A stretch of 31,147 nt of DNA. It comes from a virus. The stretch lies in UHGV virus genome UHGV-0038737, one strand, 5' to 3'. The notes beneath the pieces were generated by a model. It was not told where the DNA came from, ran no database searches, and was given only the letters and a program-made list of their open reading frames with translations. The number at the start of each line of letters is the position of its first letter. Positions within the stretch are counted from its first letter, which is position 1. Made by a program: the position numbers and the translations under genes. Shown here piece after piece: positions 1,501 to 29,827 of the stretch.

Positions 1501-1914
1501 TCACGCTGCGGGTTTTTCAGGCCACTGAATATCTGGCACGGTGATATCCAGCGCGTTCAGCGCATCACTGTAACTCAACCAGGCATGCAGGGCTGCGGTT
1601 TCTGAATCACTCAGTTTCATGCCCACCAGGATTTTTGTCTGCCATACAGAAATAGTCGGAGCGATTTCTGACAGCAACAGCCGCCGTTGATTTTCTGCTA
1701 TCGCCAGCGGGTCCAGTTCTGGCAGTTGTTCAATACGCGGTCCTTTCTCGTCAAATATGCCCGCGAATCCATCGGGAGGATTAAAAAACGCCAGATAGTC
1801 AGCCTCGCTCATCTCTTGCAAGTCCGCAGGTAGTGAGCCAGCCGCTTCATACGCAGACAGCATACCGTTATCGAGGTAAAATCCCTGCGTGCTGATGCTG
1901 TAAAAATATTTCAT
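1501..1914 (-). CDS. tfa: Tail fibre assembly protein (Tfa chaperone)
   Basis: MKYFYSISTQGFYLDNGMLSAYEAAGSLPADLQEMSEADYLAFFNPP... is typical of lambdoid/Mu-type Tfa. Start ATG 1 nt after the tail fibre stop. Confidence 0.85.
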   Translation of the reverse strand: MKYFYSISTQGFYLDNGMLSAYEAAGSLPADLQEMSEADYLAFFNPPDGFAGIFDEKGPRIEQLPELDPLAIAENQRRLLLSEIAPTISVWQTKILVGMKLSDSETAALHAWLSYSDALNALDITVPDIQWPEKPAA

Positions 1915-22911: not shown

Positions 22912-23110
22912 AGCTCACTCCATACACAAAAACAGAGAAAGGAAACGCCCTCTGGCTATTTAGCCGTTTTTAAGGCTTATCATTTCCTTTCTTTTCAGGG
23001 GTGTTTACAGTTAAAACAATGAATTAGCGAGAAGAAGAACGGAAACGGCAAATGCCTGAAAATTTTCATAAATAGCGAGAATCTGCGCGGACGCCGCCCC
23101 GTAACAGGGC
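22912..23110 (-). other. cos packaging site (cosN and cosB region)
   Basis: The minus strand reads ACGGGGCGGCGTCCGCGCAGATTCTCGCTATTTATGAAAATTTTC...CGTTTCCTTTCTCTGTTTTTGT...ATG(Nu1), collinear with the lambda left end as recalled. The 12-nt cohesive-end equivalent GGGCGGCGTCCG is at 23088-23099. Confidence 0.7.
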
Positions 23111-23267
23111 GGATCGCCGGAAAGGACCCGAAAAGATAATGATTATCAATTGCAAGTTATTCCCTTCAAGATAATGCCACCTGGACGGCAATGGCATTGG
23201 CCCGTGTCTGTAATCCATTCATCGGCTGCTTTTTAAGCTCAGATGTATTGCTTTTTGTTTTGCAGAA

Positions 23268-23504
23268 CTACCACCTTGTTACTGCAATCGGAATTGGTTT
23301 CCTGGTAGAGTTCCAAACCCAAATTTTCAGTGGAGGATGGACGGTCATTTTATCCCGTAAAAAATCGCCTGTTGCTGTATCTGGAATGTTTTCAGACTCA
23401 GCAAAACTGATTGATGCCGGGTCTAAAACAGATATCAGTGCGCTATTCGTACCATCCGTTATTTGAACTGGCTCACTACCGATTGTCATTCTTTCTGTTG
23501 CCAT
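23268..23504 (-). CDS. Hypothetical protein (78 aa)
   Basis: ORF MATERMTIGSEPVQITDG... with ATG at 23504 immediately after a G8 tract (the ORF track starts at 23597). Last gene of a three-gene cluster. Confidence 0.45.
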   Translation of the reverse strand: MATERMTIGSEPVQITDGTNSALISVLDPASISFAESENIPDTATGDFLRDKMTVHPPLKIWVWNSTRKPIPIAVTRW

Positions 23505-23507
23505 GTG

Positions 23508-23515
23508 CCCCCCCC
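23508..23515 (-). repeat. G8 homopolymer tract (C8 on plus strand) in the RBS region of the 78-aa ORF
   Basis: Minus strand TAG-GGGGGGG-CAC-ATG: the tract begins in the stop of the 94-aa gene and ends 3 nt before the next ATG. Confidence 0.9.
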
Positions 23516-23799
23516 TACGCCAGTACGTATTCAGGTGTTGATGGATTGATGATAAATTTCTGCGCAGCTTCAGGTATGAGGCCATAGATAACATCAATGT
23601 GATAACCGTCCTTTAGGGTCGGCTCCTTTATCACATTTCCGGCCTCGTCATATTCACCGTCACTGTTATACAGAACGCCCCGCACAGAAAACTGAATAGA
23701 CTTAGTCGGTACTGCCCATCCAGCCCCCTCAGACCACCAACCAGTGGCTGCTCTCGCAGTAGCCTCATCAGGGAATCGTAAATATGTCAGCCTGCTCAT
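23515..23799 (-). CDS. Hypothetical protein (94 aa)
   Basis: ORF MSRLTYLRFPDEATARAATGWWSEGAGW... with start overlapping the stop of the upstream 356-aa gene. No family recognised. Confidence 0.5.
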   Translation of the reverse strand: MSRLTYLRFPDEATARAATGWWSEGAGWAVPTKSIQFSVRGVLYNSDGEYDEAGNVIKEPTLKDGYHIDVIYGLIPEAAQKFIINPSTPEYVLA

Positions 23800-24869
23800 T
23801 ATCTTATGTACTCGATTCGTTGGATGTAGCGCTTACCCCAGTCAGTCGTTGATGCTGGTATTTCAACCTCTTCTGCACCGCCAAAATCGATTTGCTTGGT
23901 CGTTGCGTCGCTATAGTGCAAACGCACAGAGGTTGCAATTCTGCTGGGGTTCTTGATGTTCGCAAAAGCCTTGGATCGTGTTGCAGCAGCGCTGGATGCA
24001 ATGATTGGTGATGTTGAACAGGGATTATCTTCAAGCTGCAGTGTTGCAAACTCCAGAGAATATGATGAATCTCCAACGTAGGTTTCGCCACCGGGTGTGA
24101 TACTGGTTGATGGCCCCATATAGATTATATAGGAAGGTGACTTTACGGATTTTGTCGCAATAACAGTCCCGGAAAACCGTATTACGCCGGGAGAGATAAA
24201 CTCTGCGGTTGTAGTGAGTCCATCAGAAATACCGGTGAATGACACTGACGCATCAGAGATATTTATTACAGATAAAATCTGCGCATCAACAATCAATTGG
24301 TGCGCTAAAATGACAAATGCATACCCTCTCGACTTCTCTGTTTTTTGAATAAAACCGCTAAAGCTGTACTTCTTTCCCGCCGTAACTTTCTGCGGACATG
24401 CAGCGTAGTGTGGCCCTTCCAAATTAGATTCTGTAAGCCTGAATGTCGGGGTATTCAGTATTCTTTCTGCGGAATTACTTATTGCCGCACGCACTGCCCC
24501 TACCCCCCCCGTATAGTAGGTGTTGGTCGCCTGCACTTCAGGCTCATGCCTTCCAACTGCCACACCATTTCGGTACTCAAGCGGCCATACGTCAGGTGCA
24601 GCGAACTGAATAGTTCCGTCAGCTGAGTAGTATGCATGGTTGCTTGCGCAGCTGAACGAAACCCGATAATCCAGTGCAGAGGAGGTAAGATCGATATCGC
24701 TAAGGTCAACCCACTCGCCAGGCGGCAGCGTCATAACATTAGCACCGGGAATAACTATGCCGGATGGAAAACTATCTGATGATGCGCCAAGCTCAGTCAC
24801 ATCAGGGATAAATAAGCCTTTCATAATTGCACCACAAGCGATGATAAATATTTCAAATAAAACCGGCAT
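23799..24869 (-). CDS. Hypothetical beta-rich protein (356 aa; start could be Met16 at 24824)
   Basis: Long ORF with Ser/Thr/Gly-rich composition and no recognisable catalytic or nucleotide-binding motif. Hydrophobic N-terminus. Contains an in-frame G8 tract. Confidence 0.55.
   Translation of the reverse strand: MPVLFEIFIIACGAIMKGLFIPDVTELGASSDSFPSGIVIPGANVMTLPPGEWVDLSDIDLTSSALDYRVSFSCASNHAYYSADGTIQFAAPDVWPLEYRNGVAVGRHEPEVQATNTYYTGGVGAVRAAISNSAERILNTPTFRLTESNLEGPHYAACPQKVTAGKKYSFSGFIQKTEKSRGYAFVILAHQLIVDAQILSVINISDASVSFTGISDGLTTTAEFISPGVIRFSGTVIATKSVKSPSYIIYMGPSTSITPGGETYVGDSSYSLEFATLQLEDNPCSTSPIIASSAAATRSKAFANIKNPSRIATSVRLHYSDATTKQIDFGGAEEVEIPASTTDWGKRYIQRIEYIR
24503..24510 (-). repeat. G8 homopolymer tract inside the 356-aa coding sequence
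   Basis: Coding strand ACG GGG GGG GTA (T-G-G-V). Eight consecutive G. Confidence 0.9.
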
Positions 24870-24923
24870 AGGCCACGCTATTTCATGGCTCTGGTTTTCT
24901 CTATTAAGGAGCTTCTGTAATGG

Positions 24924-25181
24924 CTACTTCGTTTTTGCTTCCGCTCTTTTACGGCGGCGCTCTTCTTTCTTCTCGGCGTTTGCCATGTCCATGAATGCCT
25001 GCATGATCGAGTTCCTCATCATGTAACTTACAAAGTGATGATTGACGCAGCCGTTGAGACGGAGTTGCTCGCCAAACTGATCAACCGAGGCCAGCACCTG
25101 CATCATGTCCTTCTCACCTTTCATGAACTCTGAGAAGTCGCGCCCCGCTCTGGAGGCGCATTCTATTATTCGGGTGCTCAT
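24924..25181 (-). CDS. Hypothetical small protein with basic C-terminus (85 aa)
   Basis: ORF MSTRIIECASRAGRDFSEF...KKEERRRKRAEAKTK. ATG at 25181 overlaps the KilA-N gene stop (TGATCATGA). Confidence 0.45.
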   Translation of the reverse strand: MSTRIIECASRAGRDFSEFMKGEKDMMQVLASVDQFGEQLRLNGCVNHHFVSYMMRNSIMQAFMDMANAEKKEERRRKRAEAKTK

Positions 25182-25183
25182 GA

Positions 25184-25912
25184 TCAGGCCGCCGCATAGA
25201 GCAATTTCATCTGCCCTTTTACCTGGAATGCCGACATGCAACGCGCTTCGAAATCACGATAATCAGAGCACCCATTGGCAATGCTGGTAACGGCAATGAT
25301 CTGTCGCTCAACCAATGTCAGCGCGTCAGGTTTAAGGTGCTGATGGATTTTGTCTCCCGCAGCCAGCCGTCTTTTAACCTCTGCATATACTTCTGGTGGT
25401 AATACCGGGCCATATACCCACTTGGCACTGATCATCCCAAATAGTGCGGGGCGACGACCTGGTCGATGACGGGGCAGCCCTGACATTTTGAACATCGCAG
25501 AATAAAACGGATCGCTAAACCTCTTTTCCCATGGCTGAGATTTATCCAGAAGGAAAATAGCCTTTATTCTTTCATCGTCGATATGATGAACGGAACCCTG
25601 AATGATTGCGTCAATTTGCTCATCACACCAGATCTCAAAATCTACAGAAAGCCATCGAGCAAATCTGACCGCCAGTTTTGGGTGAAGCCATGTTCCGCCG
25701 CCACGGTCTTTGCGAGCGCGGCTGGTTTTTACATATGTGATATTCCCATATCTACTCTTTAACGCCTCGATGTAACGGACAGTCTCAGGAAGCCTAAGCC
25801 ACTGAGCCGGCTCCTTGTTGAACTTGTCAGCTGCCGCAGTCGCGTCAAACCAGCCATCGTCAGAAAAACGCATGGGATGGCCTTCGAAATCAATCGGGAT
25901 GATATTGGACAT
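25184..25912 (-). CDS. KilA-N domain protein (Bro-N/KilA-N N-terminus, P63C-like C-terminus)
   Basis: MSNIIPIDFEGHPMRFSDDGWFDATAAADKFNKEPAQWLRLPETVRYIEAL is a typical KilA-N N-terminus. The ORF track extends to 25987 and the upstream Met cannot be excluded. Confidence 0.7.
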   Translation of the reverse strand: MSNIIPIDFEGHPMRFSDDGWFDATAAADKFNKEPAQWLRLPETVRYIEALKSRYGNITYVKTSRARKDRGGGTWLHPKLAVRFARWLSVDFEIWCDEQIDAIIQGSVHHIDDERIKAIFLLDKSQPWEKRFSDPFYSAMFKMSGLPRHRPGRRPALFGMISAKWVYGPVLPPEVYAEVKRRLAAGDKIHQHLKPDALTLVERQIIAVTSIANGCSDYRDFEARCMSAFQVKGQMKLLYAAA

Positions 25913-26061
25913 CGTATTTACCTTTTTGGTGATATGAGCCAGTTCTCGCAGACATGGACAGCCCAAGAGCGGCACGATGTAAGCCACCGTCCTGTCTCTG
26001 TCTCATATCCCGAAAAGCTCTTGGTTGATATGCGCACGAGAATGCGCGGTTTACTGCGGAT

Positions 26062-26088
26062 ATAAAAAAGCCCCGCATAGGCGAGGCT
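26062..26088 (-). terminator. Rho-independent terminator after the protease gene
   Basis: Minus-strand RNA GCCUCGC-CUAU-GCGGGGC (one G-U pair) followed by UUUUUUAUAU, 19 nt after the stop at 26107. Confidence 0.55.
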
Positions 26089-26106: not shown

Positions 26107-27009
26107 TTAAGACTGGATATTCCAAATCATTGCGTTACCGTTATGATTTTCAATGATTTTTGCCAGTGGTGCTCCACCAAAAGAATGCATGTAGCTGTGA
26201 TGTATAGTCAAAACCAAATCTTGAAGTACTTGATCACTTTCAAGTTCGGTAACATTCAACCCAATTTTCTGCGCCTTATCAAAATGAATATGACGCGAGT
26301 GGGTATAGGTTGTGTGATGGTTGTTTAACTCTGAACAAACATGTGTTGCTTTTGATTCTGCCTCAGGATCATTATCAAACATGCCTGTCATAAGCCAATG
26401 CTTAACAATCTCATTTGCCCATTTGATTGCTTTCTCACACTCGCCGATGATCGTCGGGTTTAGCTTTTGAAGAATGAACTGCCACATCTGAACAGCTGCG
26501 GGATTTTGAAAAATTTCCGTCTGCGCACGATTCCATTCTTCAATGATGGCATGGGTGGAGAAACCGTTGAACTGAGGATCAATTGGGCCAATGTTGGACT
26601 GTTTACCCATGATGATTTCATTGGCACAACATGCAAGCATAGTTCCGCAGGACATTGAAATCATAGGAACAATTGCTCTGATGTTAGTTCCAAACTTCGA
26701 CCTTAAGTAATGCCCGATTGATTCCAAAGCGGCAATATCACCACCTGGAGTATGAAGTATCAAATCCAACCCTTTTGATACATCTAAACCATTGATGGCT
26801 GTCATCAACCCGTTCTTATCATCATCAGTCATCTGAGTAAGATGGCGTACTTCTGCACCACCATGCTGTAACCACCCTGAGTAATATGTGATTACATTTC
26901 TTCCAGTATGATTCGAAAGTTGAGATAAGTATTTACGGCGAACCTCATCCATAGGACTTTTATGGGCGAGAGCCGTTATCTCGCCCAGTACGTCGCTCCA
27001 ATTAGGCAT
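26107..27009 (-). CDS. ClpP-fold serine protease, SDH / S49-like family
   Basis: Motifs GLDLILHTPGGDIAALESIGHYLRSKFG, IRAIVPMISMSCGTMLACCANEIIMG and GPIDPQ are characteristic of the ClpP/crotonase-fold SDH serine proteinase family as recalled. AT-rich gene, translationally coupled to the upstream small ORF. Confidence 0.8.
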   Translation of the reverse strand: MPNWSDVLGEITALAHKSPMDEVRRKYLSQLSNHTGRNVITYYSGWLQHGGAEVRHLTQMTDDDKNGLMTAINGLDVSKGLDLILHTPGGDIAALESIGHYLRSKFGTNIRAIVPMISMSCGTMLACCANEIIMGKQSNIGPIDPQFNGFSTHAIIEEWNRAQTEIFQNPAAVQMWQFILQKLNPTIIGECEKAIKWANEIVKHWLMTGMFDNDPEAESKATHVCSELNNHHTTYTHSRHIHFDKAQKIGLNVTELESDQVLQDLVLTIHHSYMHSFGGAPLAKIIENHNGNAMIWNIQS

Positions 27010-29329: not shown

Positions 29330-29827
29330 GTGAACAATTTTATTCAAGCTTTAGATGTTTCGATTAAAACCCAAAATTGGTACTCAGTATTATTTATATC
29401 GCTTACGCTGCCAGACATTTTCGGGAAGATTGATGAACCAAACAAAGGATCGCAGGCAAGAACTGTTAATTGGTACAACAAGTACATGAAAGATATGTAT
29501 ACACATCATATCGGCCCCGATCGCCTAGAGCATACATTCCTAAGCGGCAACGACTTTTATGCACTTCGCTGCGCATATCTTCACGAAGGAAGTGACGATA
29601 TTAGAAATCAGAGTGCTCAAGATGTTTTAGAAAAATTTGAATTCGTCCAGCCAATAAGTAATCAAAGCCTACACTGCAACCAATTTAATCAAATGCTTCT
29701 ACTGCAGGTTGATCGATTTGGGAAAGATGTGATGTCAGCTGTTGGCTCATGGCTAAAAGATATTGAGGGTGATGTAGAAAAAACAAACAAACTCAATGAG
29801 TTATTAAAAATAAAAATAATACCATGA
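29330..29827 (+). CDS. Hypothetical 165-aa protein, antisense AT-rich moron between Q and the holin; possible HEPN-like fold
   Basis: GTG start with AAAGGA RBS. Very AT-rich relative to flanking phage DNA. Contains an R-x4-H motif (R80-CAYL-H85). Confidence 0.55.
   Translation: MNNFIQALDVSIKTQNWYSVLFISLTLPDIFGKIDEPNKGSQARTVNWYNKYMKDMYTHHIGPDRLEHTFLSGNDFYALRCAYLHEGSDDIRNQSAQDVLEKFEFVQPISNQSLHCNQFNQMLLLQVDRFGKDVMSAVGSWLKDIEGDVEKTNKLNELLKIKIIP

Follow-up and report, generated by a model that had tools for sequence, protein, structure and literature searches.

A three-gene cassette beside cos of a lambdoid prophage probably encodes a portable accessory virion adhesin with its own adaptor

Accessory sugar-binding appendages are an established kind of virion part. 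In the gene transfer agent RcGTA, residues 2-10 of the head-spike fibre are held in a pentamer of a small base protein, the fibre is otherwise flexible, and it binds capsule-bearing cells (Bardy et al. 2020; Westbye et al. 2016). In Shigella phage Sf11, residues 3-165 of the distal tail protein (Dit) gp17 were modelled (PDB 9OCC, PMC12724387); the remainder of gp17 is a large, flexible extra appendage whose function was unknown to the authors. The virion proteome of Pantoea phage AAS23 (vB_PagS_AAS23), determined by its authors by liquid chromatography-tandem mass spectrometry, contained gp83 (10 peptides, 35% coverage) and the product of the adjacent gene, the 81-aa gp82 (3 peptides, 38% coverage). 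The genes of these two proteins lie outside the structural gene cluster. Here we describe three open reading frames (ORF1, ORF2 and ORF3) located in the late region of the virus genome UHGV-0038737, a lambdoid prophage whose genes are read on the minus strand. The whole stretch of 31,147 nucleotides is referred to as the window. The three ORFs probably constitute a late-expressed, portable accessory virion adhesin that is provided with its own adaptor. Their positions in the window are as follows (CBM, carbohydrate-binding module).

ORF1, 23799 to 24824, minus strand: starts at the conserved Met16 and has 341 aa; appendage or fibre protein of the free-standing kind, with a predicted CBM-like jelly roll.
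ORF2, 23515 to 23799, minus strand: 94 aa, phrog_18574; optional partner, found between ORF1 and ORF3 whenever present.
ORF3, 23268 to 23504, minus strand: 78 aa, phrog_4772; small, predicted all-beta partner of free-standing ORF1, putative virion adaptor.

As stated in a preliminary description of this DNA, the three ORFs are tightly packed near cos. They are co-oriented with the late genes, the stop codon of ORF1 overlaps the start codon of ORF2 (TAATG), and 10 nt separate the ORF2 stop codon from ORF3, whose ATG sits behind a GGGGGGG run. The coordinates agreed with the lengths given there (356, 94 and 78 aa), except that ORF1 is probably 341 aa long. The described drop in GC content was also confirmed: GC content is about 0.47 around the cassette (0.466-0.472 over 22.5-25 kb) and 0.53-0.59 in the structural (head and tail) genes. 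That all three are real genes is indicated by their membership in conserved protein families (PHROGs 11600, 18574 and 4772). In RefSeq, PGAP omits ORF2 and ORF3 and annotates a hypothetical 91-aa ORF on the plus strand (23191-23466 in the window, 6192-6467 in L001). Family conservation argues that the minus-strand ORF2 and ORF3, and not this plus-strand ORF, are the real genes.

None of the three proteins had been assigned to a recognisable family in the preliminary description. For ORF1 this proved to be incorrect. With 43.9 bits (E 3.7e-11) the protein passes the curated whole-protein cut-off (36 bits) of NCBIfam NF048003 (GTA_spike_fiber; phage head spike fiber domain-containing protein), the match covering residues 116-299 of the 356-aa form, and PGAP gives this name automatically to an identical protein. 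Pfam contained no match for ORF1, ORF2 or ORF3. When the PDB was searched with a profile built from 30 members of the ORF1 family, the closest relative among solved entries was the appendage of the Sf11 distal tail protein gp17 (9occ_C, residues 165-455; E 9e-43), followed by residues 82-282 of the RcGTA head-spike fibre Rcc01080 (6tb9; E 2.1e-15) and by the baseplate proteins E217 gp45 and Pa193 gp46 (E of about 2e-5). The C-terminal parts of the distal tail proteins of Kagunaviruses were 25-29% identical over 83-94% of ORF1 in tblastn searches. The preliminary description had set clear homology of the large protein to a core virion component against its own proposal; the homology that was found is to a virion component, of the accessory and not of the core kind.

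ORF1 consists of four segments. The block identities listed here were computed among 13 close relatives, and pLDDT is the confidence of the structural model.

N-terminal peptide, 24696 to 24824, minus strand: aa 1-43 of the 341-aa form; 98% identical; pLDDT 46-67.
N block, 24522 to 24695, minus strand: aa 44-101, DLSDIDLT...WPLEYRNGVAVGRHEPE; contains invariant residues; 96% identical; pLDDT above 90.
Hypervariable middle, 24045 to 24521, minus strand: aa 102-260; mean pairwise identity 17% (range 5-97%); overlaps the NF048003 match.
C block, 23799 to 24044, minus strand: aa 261-341 and the stop codon; QxExG..TSPI..ATRAAAF...DWGxRYIQRIEYIR; 56% identical; pLDDT 86-98.

The N-terminal peptide contains two copies of a G-hydrophobic-hydrophobic-I-P-G/D motif (GLFIPD and GIVIPG) and a linker modelled with low confidence. 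Throughout the family the N-termini have one or two copies of G-hydrophobic-hydrophobic-I/V-P-G followed by Gly/Ser/Pro-rich linkers, and the first 43 or so residues are predicted to be disordered. These features suggest that aa 1-43 serve as a tether or anchor. The model of ORF1 is a CBM-like beta jelly roll with fold matches to CBMs (CBM4, 16, 22 and 29) and with low confidence in the middle; the hypervariable middle would be an exchangeable CBM-like domain that binds a ligand. The C block is common to ORF1 and the Sf11 Dit appendage and is unaligned in RcGTA Rcc01080 and in the cyanophage proteins described below. A constant N-terminal end combined with an exchangeable middle is the usual signature of receptor-binding proteins. 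An accessory receptor-binding module had been among the roles proposed in the preliminary description, and this proposal gained support from the homology to virion-borne sugar-binding appendages, from the receptor-binding-protein-like mosaicism and from the proteomics of a homologous pair. In some relatives two complete ORF1 modules are arranged in tandem in one protein (L028, 259-2028; L036, 6001-7767), and an ORF3-family gene still follows both of these. Two modules are likewise present in proteins P0021, P0022, P0034 and P0036 (about 590 aa).

The longest reading of ORF1 (23799-24869, minus strand) encodes 356 aa and starts in a conserved segment that forms the upstream boundary of the cassette.

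Cassette leader, 24825 to 24931, minus strand: conserved; contains the 15 codons behind the apparent hydrophobic N-terminus.

Homology to phage HK639 begins at window position 24931; the gene upstream of this point differs (Rha in HK639, KilA-N in the window). The 15-residue N-terminal extension of the 356-aa form has a Kyte-Doolittle value of 2.24 and is without counterpart in distant homologues, which begin at the position of Met16 (MKGLFIP..., ATG at 24824) and have good Shine-Dalgarno sequences. Since Met16 is the family-wide start and PGAP calls ORF1 at 341 aa, the extension is probably not translated, and the hydrophobic N-terminus of the preliminary description is a feature of the 356-aa reading alone. 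Read from their conserved start, the proteins have neither a signal peptide nor a membrane segment. A lipoprotein or signal-anchor interpretation of the 356-aa form, with IIAC as an approximate lipobox, was rejected: a positively charged n-region is lacking, the Cys occupies position 12, and distant homologues do not have the extension.

The gene neighbourhood of ORF1 homologues was surveyed by a six-frame hidden Markov model (HMM) scan of 51 loci from IMG/VR, two from genomes and several records of isolates. A scan of one genome per species gave only two loci, so the census rests on IMG/VR contigs, some duplicates included. An ORF3-family gene lay directly downstream of the ORF1 homologue, or of ORF2, in 38 of the 45 evaluable free-standing loci. 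No ORF3 was found next to the forms in which the module is fused to a larger protein (three IMG/VR loci, Kagunavirus distal tail proteins, LIET2 gp085 and the S-WAM2 tail proteins). The ORF3 family had 27 matches in a library of representatives (one protein for each 50%-identity cluster), and all but one of them, 26, were stand-alone proteins of 75-84 aa. ORF2 was less frequent: it was present in 14 of 53 related loci, each time between ORF1 and ORF3, and 13 homologues were collected. A clear homologue is gp054 of the T4-like cyanophage S-WAM2 (hhalign probability 98.5%, E 3e-15), whose gene directly follows those of two 'tail proteins' carrying an ORF1-type module (97%, E 1e-10). The link of ORF2 to ORF1-like proteins is ancient. 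By gene linkage, the conserved unit is ORF1 plus ORF3, with ORF2 as an accessory partner. Of the idea that the trio moves as a unit, the part concerning ORF1 and ORF3 was upheld, and the part concerning ORF2 holds for a subset of loci only. ORF3 accompanies the module solely where no covalent bond joins the latter to a virion protein, and an adaptor role therefore suits ORF3 better than one in folding.

No meaningful match was found when ORF2 and ORF3 were compared, as single sequences and as profiles, with the PDB up to E 10, RcGTA entries included. Weak matches to the tetratricopeptide repeats of kinesin light chain and to an alpha-xylosidase were discarded as spurious. ORF3 showed no similarity to ORF2, to the N-terminal domain of the Kagunavirus Dit, to the N-terminal part of a fused homologue, to Pavtok gp6 or to S-WAM2 gp053. 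Neither ORF2 nor ORF3 matched a Pfam or NCBIfam model, and there was no match to Caudo_TAP or another chaperone family. A genuine Caudo_TAP gene is located elsewhere in the window (1501-1914).

The AAS23 proteome provides the link to virions. AAS23 gp83 is a free-standing ORF1 homologue (HMM E 6e-54), and its gene is followed by that of gp82. The families of gp82 and ORF3 matched in hhalign over 66 columns (83%, E 9e-6) and agree in length and position, and gp82 is probably a distant relative of ORF3.

The terminase genes that follow closely on the cassette belong to at least three Pfam types. A near-identical ORF1 N-terminus and ORF2 were seen with the lambda-type head of the window, the HK97-type head of L062 and the head module of HK639. 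In P22-like podophages, more distant pairs stand immediately behind the coat gene, ahead of gp4 and gp10, and Erwinia phage Pavtok has an ORF1 homologue between the genes of the large terminase and the portal. The ORF1-ORF3 pair travels as a cassette beside the head and packaging genes of at least four head types. A position beside cos, which the preliminary description had emphasised, is therefore not the common property, as the cassette stands upstream of several terminase types, that of HK639 among them, and directly after the coat gene in a P22-like phage. In HK639, ORF1, ORF2 and ORF3 are 98%, 100% and 67% identical to those of the window, respectively. In the linear record, 17 bp remain beyond the HK639 cassette, and a different small terminase is encoded next. 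The head proteins of the two phages have no detectable similarity, and their tail-tip proteins are 38-55% identical.

The DNA that the window and HK639 have in common extends from 24931 to about 23398, where the megablast match ends, inside ORF3.

Approximate recombination junction in ORF3, 23391 to 23398, minus strand: around codons 36-38; upstream sequence common to HK639, L062 and L064, downstream sequence diverging.

In all comparisons between different ORF3 allele types, pairwise blastn homology stopped about 113 nt into the gene, whereas in same-allele pairs (window and L012, HK639 and L064) it continued past the junction. The three ORF3 alleles have their first 22-26 residues in common save for scattered substitutions, and the proteins of the window and HK639 diverge at about codon 27. 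Both a domain boundary used for module exchange and a recombination hot spot were considered as explanations of the junction. Since, between the window and HK639, no virion protein is as conserved as the ORF1 anchor, save ORF2 and the N-terminal part of ORF3, we infer that ORF3 may bridge the constant anchor of ORF1 to a docking site specific for the phage.

Among 5426 complete E. coli genomes the conserved 5' part was present in six, and the window's allele in four. E. coli EC2001 (NZ_CP133811.1) has three separate matching places, the best of them being 4540388-4542685 for the whole 2.3-kb region and 3282384-3282795 for the conserved 5' part of ORF1; this strain may carry the cassette in more than one prophage. 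In relatives with an HK97-type head, a 485-aa protein of unknown function is encoded between ORF3 and the small terminase (L062, 10550-12007; L063, 1664-3121; L010, 7573-9030), with a sub-threshold match to glycosyltransferase family 2. In the viral contig L027 (580-2410), parts of the ORF1 C block and of ORF2 are duplicated in scrambled form ahead of an intact ORF3 and lambda-type Nu1 and A genes, which suggests a recent illegitimate recombination or an assembly problem.

In the reading that we favour, ORF1 would be a monomer-type appendage made up of a short N-terminal anchoring peptide, a flexible linker, a conserved beta domain formed by the N and C blocks, and an exchangeable jelly roll of CBM-like type. 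The latter would bind a polysaccharide of the host surface (O-antigen, capsule or similar), and this binding would provide a reversible first contact and thus faster or wider adsorption. ORF3 would be a small virion-bound adaptor, whose conserved N-terminal part holds the ORF1 anchor and whose variable remainder docks on a structure of the particular phage. ORF2 could join them as an optional third partner that either helps in assembly or adds a structural piece. The module may sit on the capsid, by analogy with RcGTA, or, with slightly lower probability, on the tail tip or hub, by analogy with Sf11.

Several observations weigh against an adhesin with its own adaptor. Seven free-standing ORF1 homologues have no ORF3. 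The model of ORF3, built from a 4-sequence alignment, is poor (pLDDT 57), and Foldseek returned nothing below E 1 for it. The pLDDT of the ORF1 middle is 39-78, and the CBM assignment derives from a weak model and from homology to proteins whose ligand sites are unsolved. The link between ORF3 and AAS23 gp82 is a moderate profile match only. For the window phage and for HK639, the adhesin role is a deduction from the genes. The upstream ATG, if used, would give ORF1 a membrane-like N-terminus. Finally, linkage to neighbouring DNA explains the distribution of ORF3 alleles equally well, and allele B is found with two different small terminases; for these reasons a correlation between ORF3 allele and head type was rejected as proof of capsid docking.

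Where and how ORF3 is attached was considered in two specific forms. In a head fibre of the RcGTA kind, the N-terminal peptide of ORF1 would tether this protein to ORF3, which would serve as a small base seated on the capsid, at the vertices for example. This is suggested by the NF048003 match and the homology to Rcc01080, and the short hydrophobic-Gly motifs and the flexible linker of ORF1 resemble the anchoring logic of RcGTA. Moreover, the free-standing pairs always lie in or beside the head and packaging genes (upstream of the small and large terminase genes, between the large terminase and portal genes in Pavtok, after the coat gene in P22-like phages), and the P22-like podophages carrying such pairs have no long tail or distal tail protein. 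However, the anchor motif of ORF1 is unlike the I-A-L-G-L-G-L-G-L motif of RcGTA, a single ORF1 anchor serves phages with sequence-unrelated capsid proteins, the similarity lacking between ORF2 or ORF3 and any PDB chain includes that to the RcGTA base protein Rcc01079, and ORF1 resembles the tail-borne Sf11 appendage much more closely than it does the GTA fibre. We regard the capsid mount as a tentative possibility. In its boldest version, which we entertain with considerable doubt, ORF1 and ORF3 would form a plug-in head-fibre kit for HK97-fold capsids, the ORF3 base seating on lambda gpE/gpD, HK97-type, HK639-type and P22-type capsids and tethering an exchangeable lectin. If this were true, the head, and not only the tail, would help to find the host in many temperate enterobacterial phages; the cassette would represent the first RcGTA-like head spike in lambdoid coliphages, and the orphan Sf11 appendage would be explained.

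The same genes can be read as a tail-mounted device, in which the docking site of ORF3 is the tip or tube of the lambda-type tail (in podophages, the hub) and ORF1 is a lateral accessory receptor-binding protein. The free-standing module would then be a split version of the fusion to the distal tail protein seen in Sf11 and the Kagunaviruses. The closest solved relative of ORF1 is indeed a Dit appendage, which includes the C block missing from RcGTA, and other relatives are baseplate or 'tail proteins'. The tail tips of the window phage and HK639 are homologous, to a degree similar to the 67% identity of their whole ORF3 proteins, in which the differences fall almost entirely after codon 26, and their heads are unrelated. 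On the other side, none of the loci examined had the free-standing genes within a tail gene block, ORF3 has no similarity to Dit N-terminal domains, and pairs are also present in P22-like podophages. A tail mount of this kind seems only slightly less probable than the capsid mount.

A third possibility is that ORF2 and ORF3 are folding or assembly chaperones of ORF1, of the tail-fibre assembly type, and that ORF1 binds the virion directly. Small genes immediately 3' of a fibre-like gene occupy the classic position of fibre chaperones, and the linkage of ORF2 to ORF1-like proteins is kept as far as a cyanomyophage. A pure chaperone role is nevertheless disfavoured, and appears improbable, since fused forms do without ORF3, which argues against a need for it in folding, and since the small downstream protein of AAS23, gp82, is present in virions. 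The two proteins also match no chaperone family, and the ORF1 anchor is near-identical across phages whose head and tail proteins differ.

The interval between Rz and cos is a known site of morons in lambdoid phages. The preliminary description had placed the trio in the cargo position and named lysogenic conversion and exclusion among its possible functions. This location, together with the GC content below that of the structural genes, the accessory look of the neighbouring SDH protease and KilA-N genes, and the membrane-like N-terminus that ORF1 would have from the upstream ATG, would suit a non-structural gene group acting in lysogenic conversion, superinfection exclusion or another host-directed process, or, as a variant, a free lectin released at lysis. 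Such a role is very unlikely, because the minus strand between 25300 and 23200 has no promoter-like site save one downstream of ORF3 and no convincing terminator of the cassette's own, ORF1 from its conserved start is soluble with no signal sequence or hydrophobic segment, PADLOC matched none of the three proteins, the homologues are virion parts, and Kagunaviruses, AAS23 and large Erwinia phages carry members of the family too, some of them being phages reported to be without integration genes or placed in families of lytic type.

The surroundings of the cassette are those of a lambdoid late region. On the minus strand, the genes for Q, holin, lysozyme, a spanin-like ORF, the low-GC SDH-type protease, the KilA-N/P63C protein and an 85-105 aa ORF are followed by ORF1-ORF2-ORF3, cos, Nu1, the large terminase, the portal and an S49 protease, and beyond the latter by gpD- and gpE-type head proteins and a lambda-type, non-contractile tail. 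The cos site was located as follows.

cosN core, 23089 to 23099, minus strand: GGGCGGCGTCC; about 170 nt beyond the ORF3 stop codon; context, outside the module.

We take GGGCGGCGTCC to be a lambda-type cosN from its likeness to the lambda cos sequence. The SDH-family serine protease of ClpP fold (26107-27009, minus strand) is encoded in an island of 41-45% GC and has no PADLOC match. It is followed by a strong terminator-like hairpin (26069-26088; 8 pairs, 6 of them GC, and a T run) and, placed between the lysis genes and KilA-N, has the appearance of an accessory gene complete in itself. The KilA-N/P63C ORF (25184-25987, minus strand) encodes 267 aa from the first GTG compared with 242 aa by PGAP, and matches the PADLOC candidate PDC-S22 weakly (E 1e-4). 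Between Q and the holin gene, at the place of the stx slot in Stx phages, a 37.6% GC patch contains a 165-aa ORF (29330-29827, plus strand) with no Pfam or PADLOC match.

Searchable literature on HK639 and on 'head spike fiber' contained no functional work on these genes. What appears to be undescribed there is the free-standing two- or three-gene cassette with small partner families of its own (phrog_4772 and phrog_18574), its constant location next to packaging and head genes in phages with unrelated head types, and the exchange junction in the middle of ORF3. If the reading as an accessory adhesin is true, temperate phages of E. coli, Enterobacter and relatives receive from a small mobile cassette one more sugar-binding adhesin, which is swappable and separate from the classical tail fibres, and the prediction of host range from prophage sequences would be affected. 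It would also assign a likely role to three PHROG families of unknown function and suggest what the appendage of the Sf11 distal tail protein does. The rarity of the cassette in E. coli makes its practical weight in that species modest. HK639, with its near-identical ORF1, is a cultivable phage in which the module can be tested.

Comparison with the described systems shows what is common to them and what sets this locus apart. The CBM beta jelly rolls that the model of ORF1 resembles in fold have no sequence similarity to ORF1, and the modelled region is of low confidence. E217 gp45 and Pa193 gp46 (PDB 8ENV and 9B45) differ from ORF1 in being core baseplate components (wedge or triplex proteins) of contractile tails, with a length of about 500 aa and other domains that are missing from ORF1. 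The Sf11 and Kagunavirus Dit appendages are closer: the homologous part spans the N block, the variable middle and the C block, is flexible and projects from the virion. In these phages, however, the module is fused to a Dit domain within the tail gene block and has no ORF2 or ORF3 neighbour, whereas ORF1 has only about 43 residues before the module and is encoded between KilA-N and cos, far from H, M and L.

The RcGTA pair (Rcc01080 and Rcc01079, PDB 6TB9) resembles the cassette in the homologous central domain with the QxExG...TS.I.T...TRA motif, and in a monomer-type fibre of about 325-340 aa with a short N-terminal anchor, a flexible body and a small partner gene adjacent to it. In the described case, moreover, the adhesin is accessory rather than essential. 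The two systems differ in that their partner proteins are unrelated in sequence and the partner gene is located downstream here and upstream in RcGTA. The anchor motifs are different, and ORF1 has an additional conserved N block and C block. The capsid location belongs to RcGTA and is only a candidate here, and an enterobacterial lambdoid prophage is compared with an alphaproteobacterial GTA. AAS23 offers the same arrangement as the window, a free-standing ORF1 homologue followed by a small gene of the size and pattern of ORF3. This phage is a member of the Drexlerviridae in which the authors found no integration genes, and its gp82-gp83 pair lies among small genes of unknown function and was assigned no function; both proteins of the pair are present in its virions.

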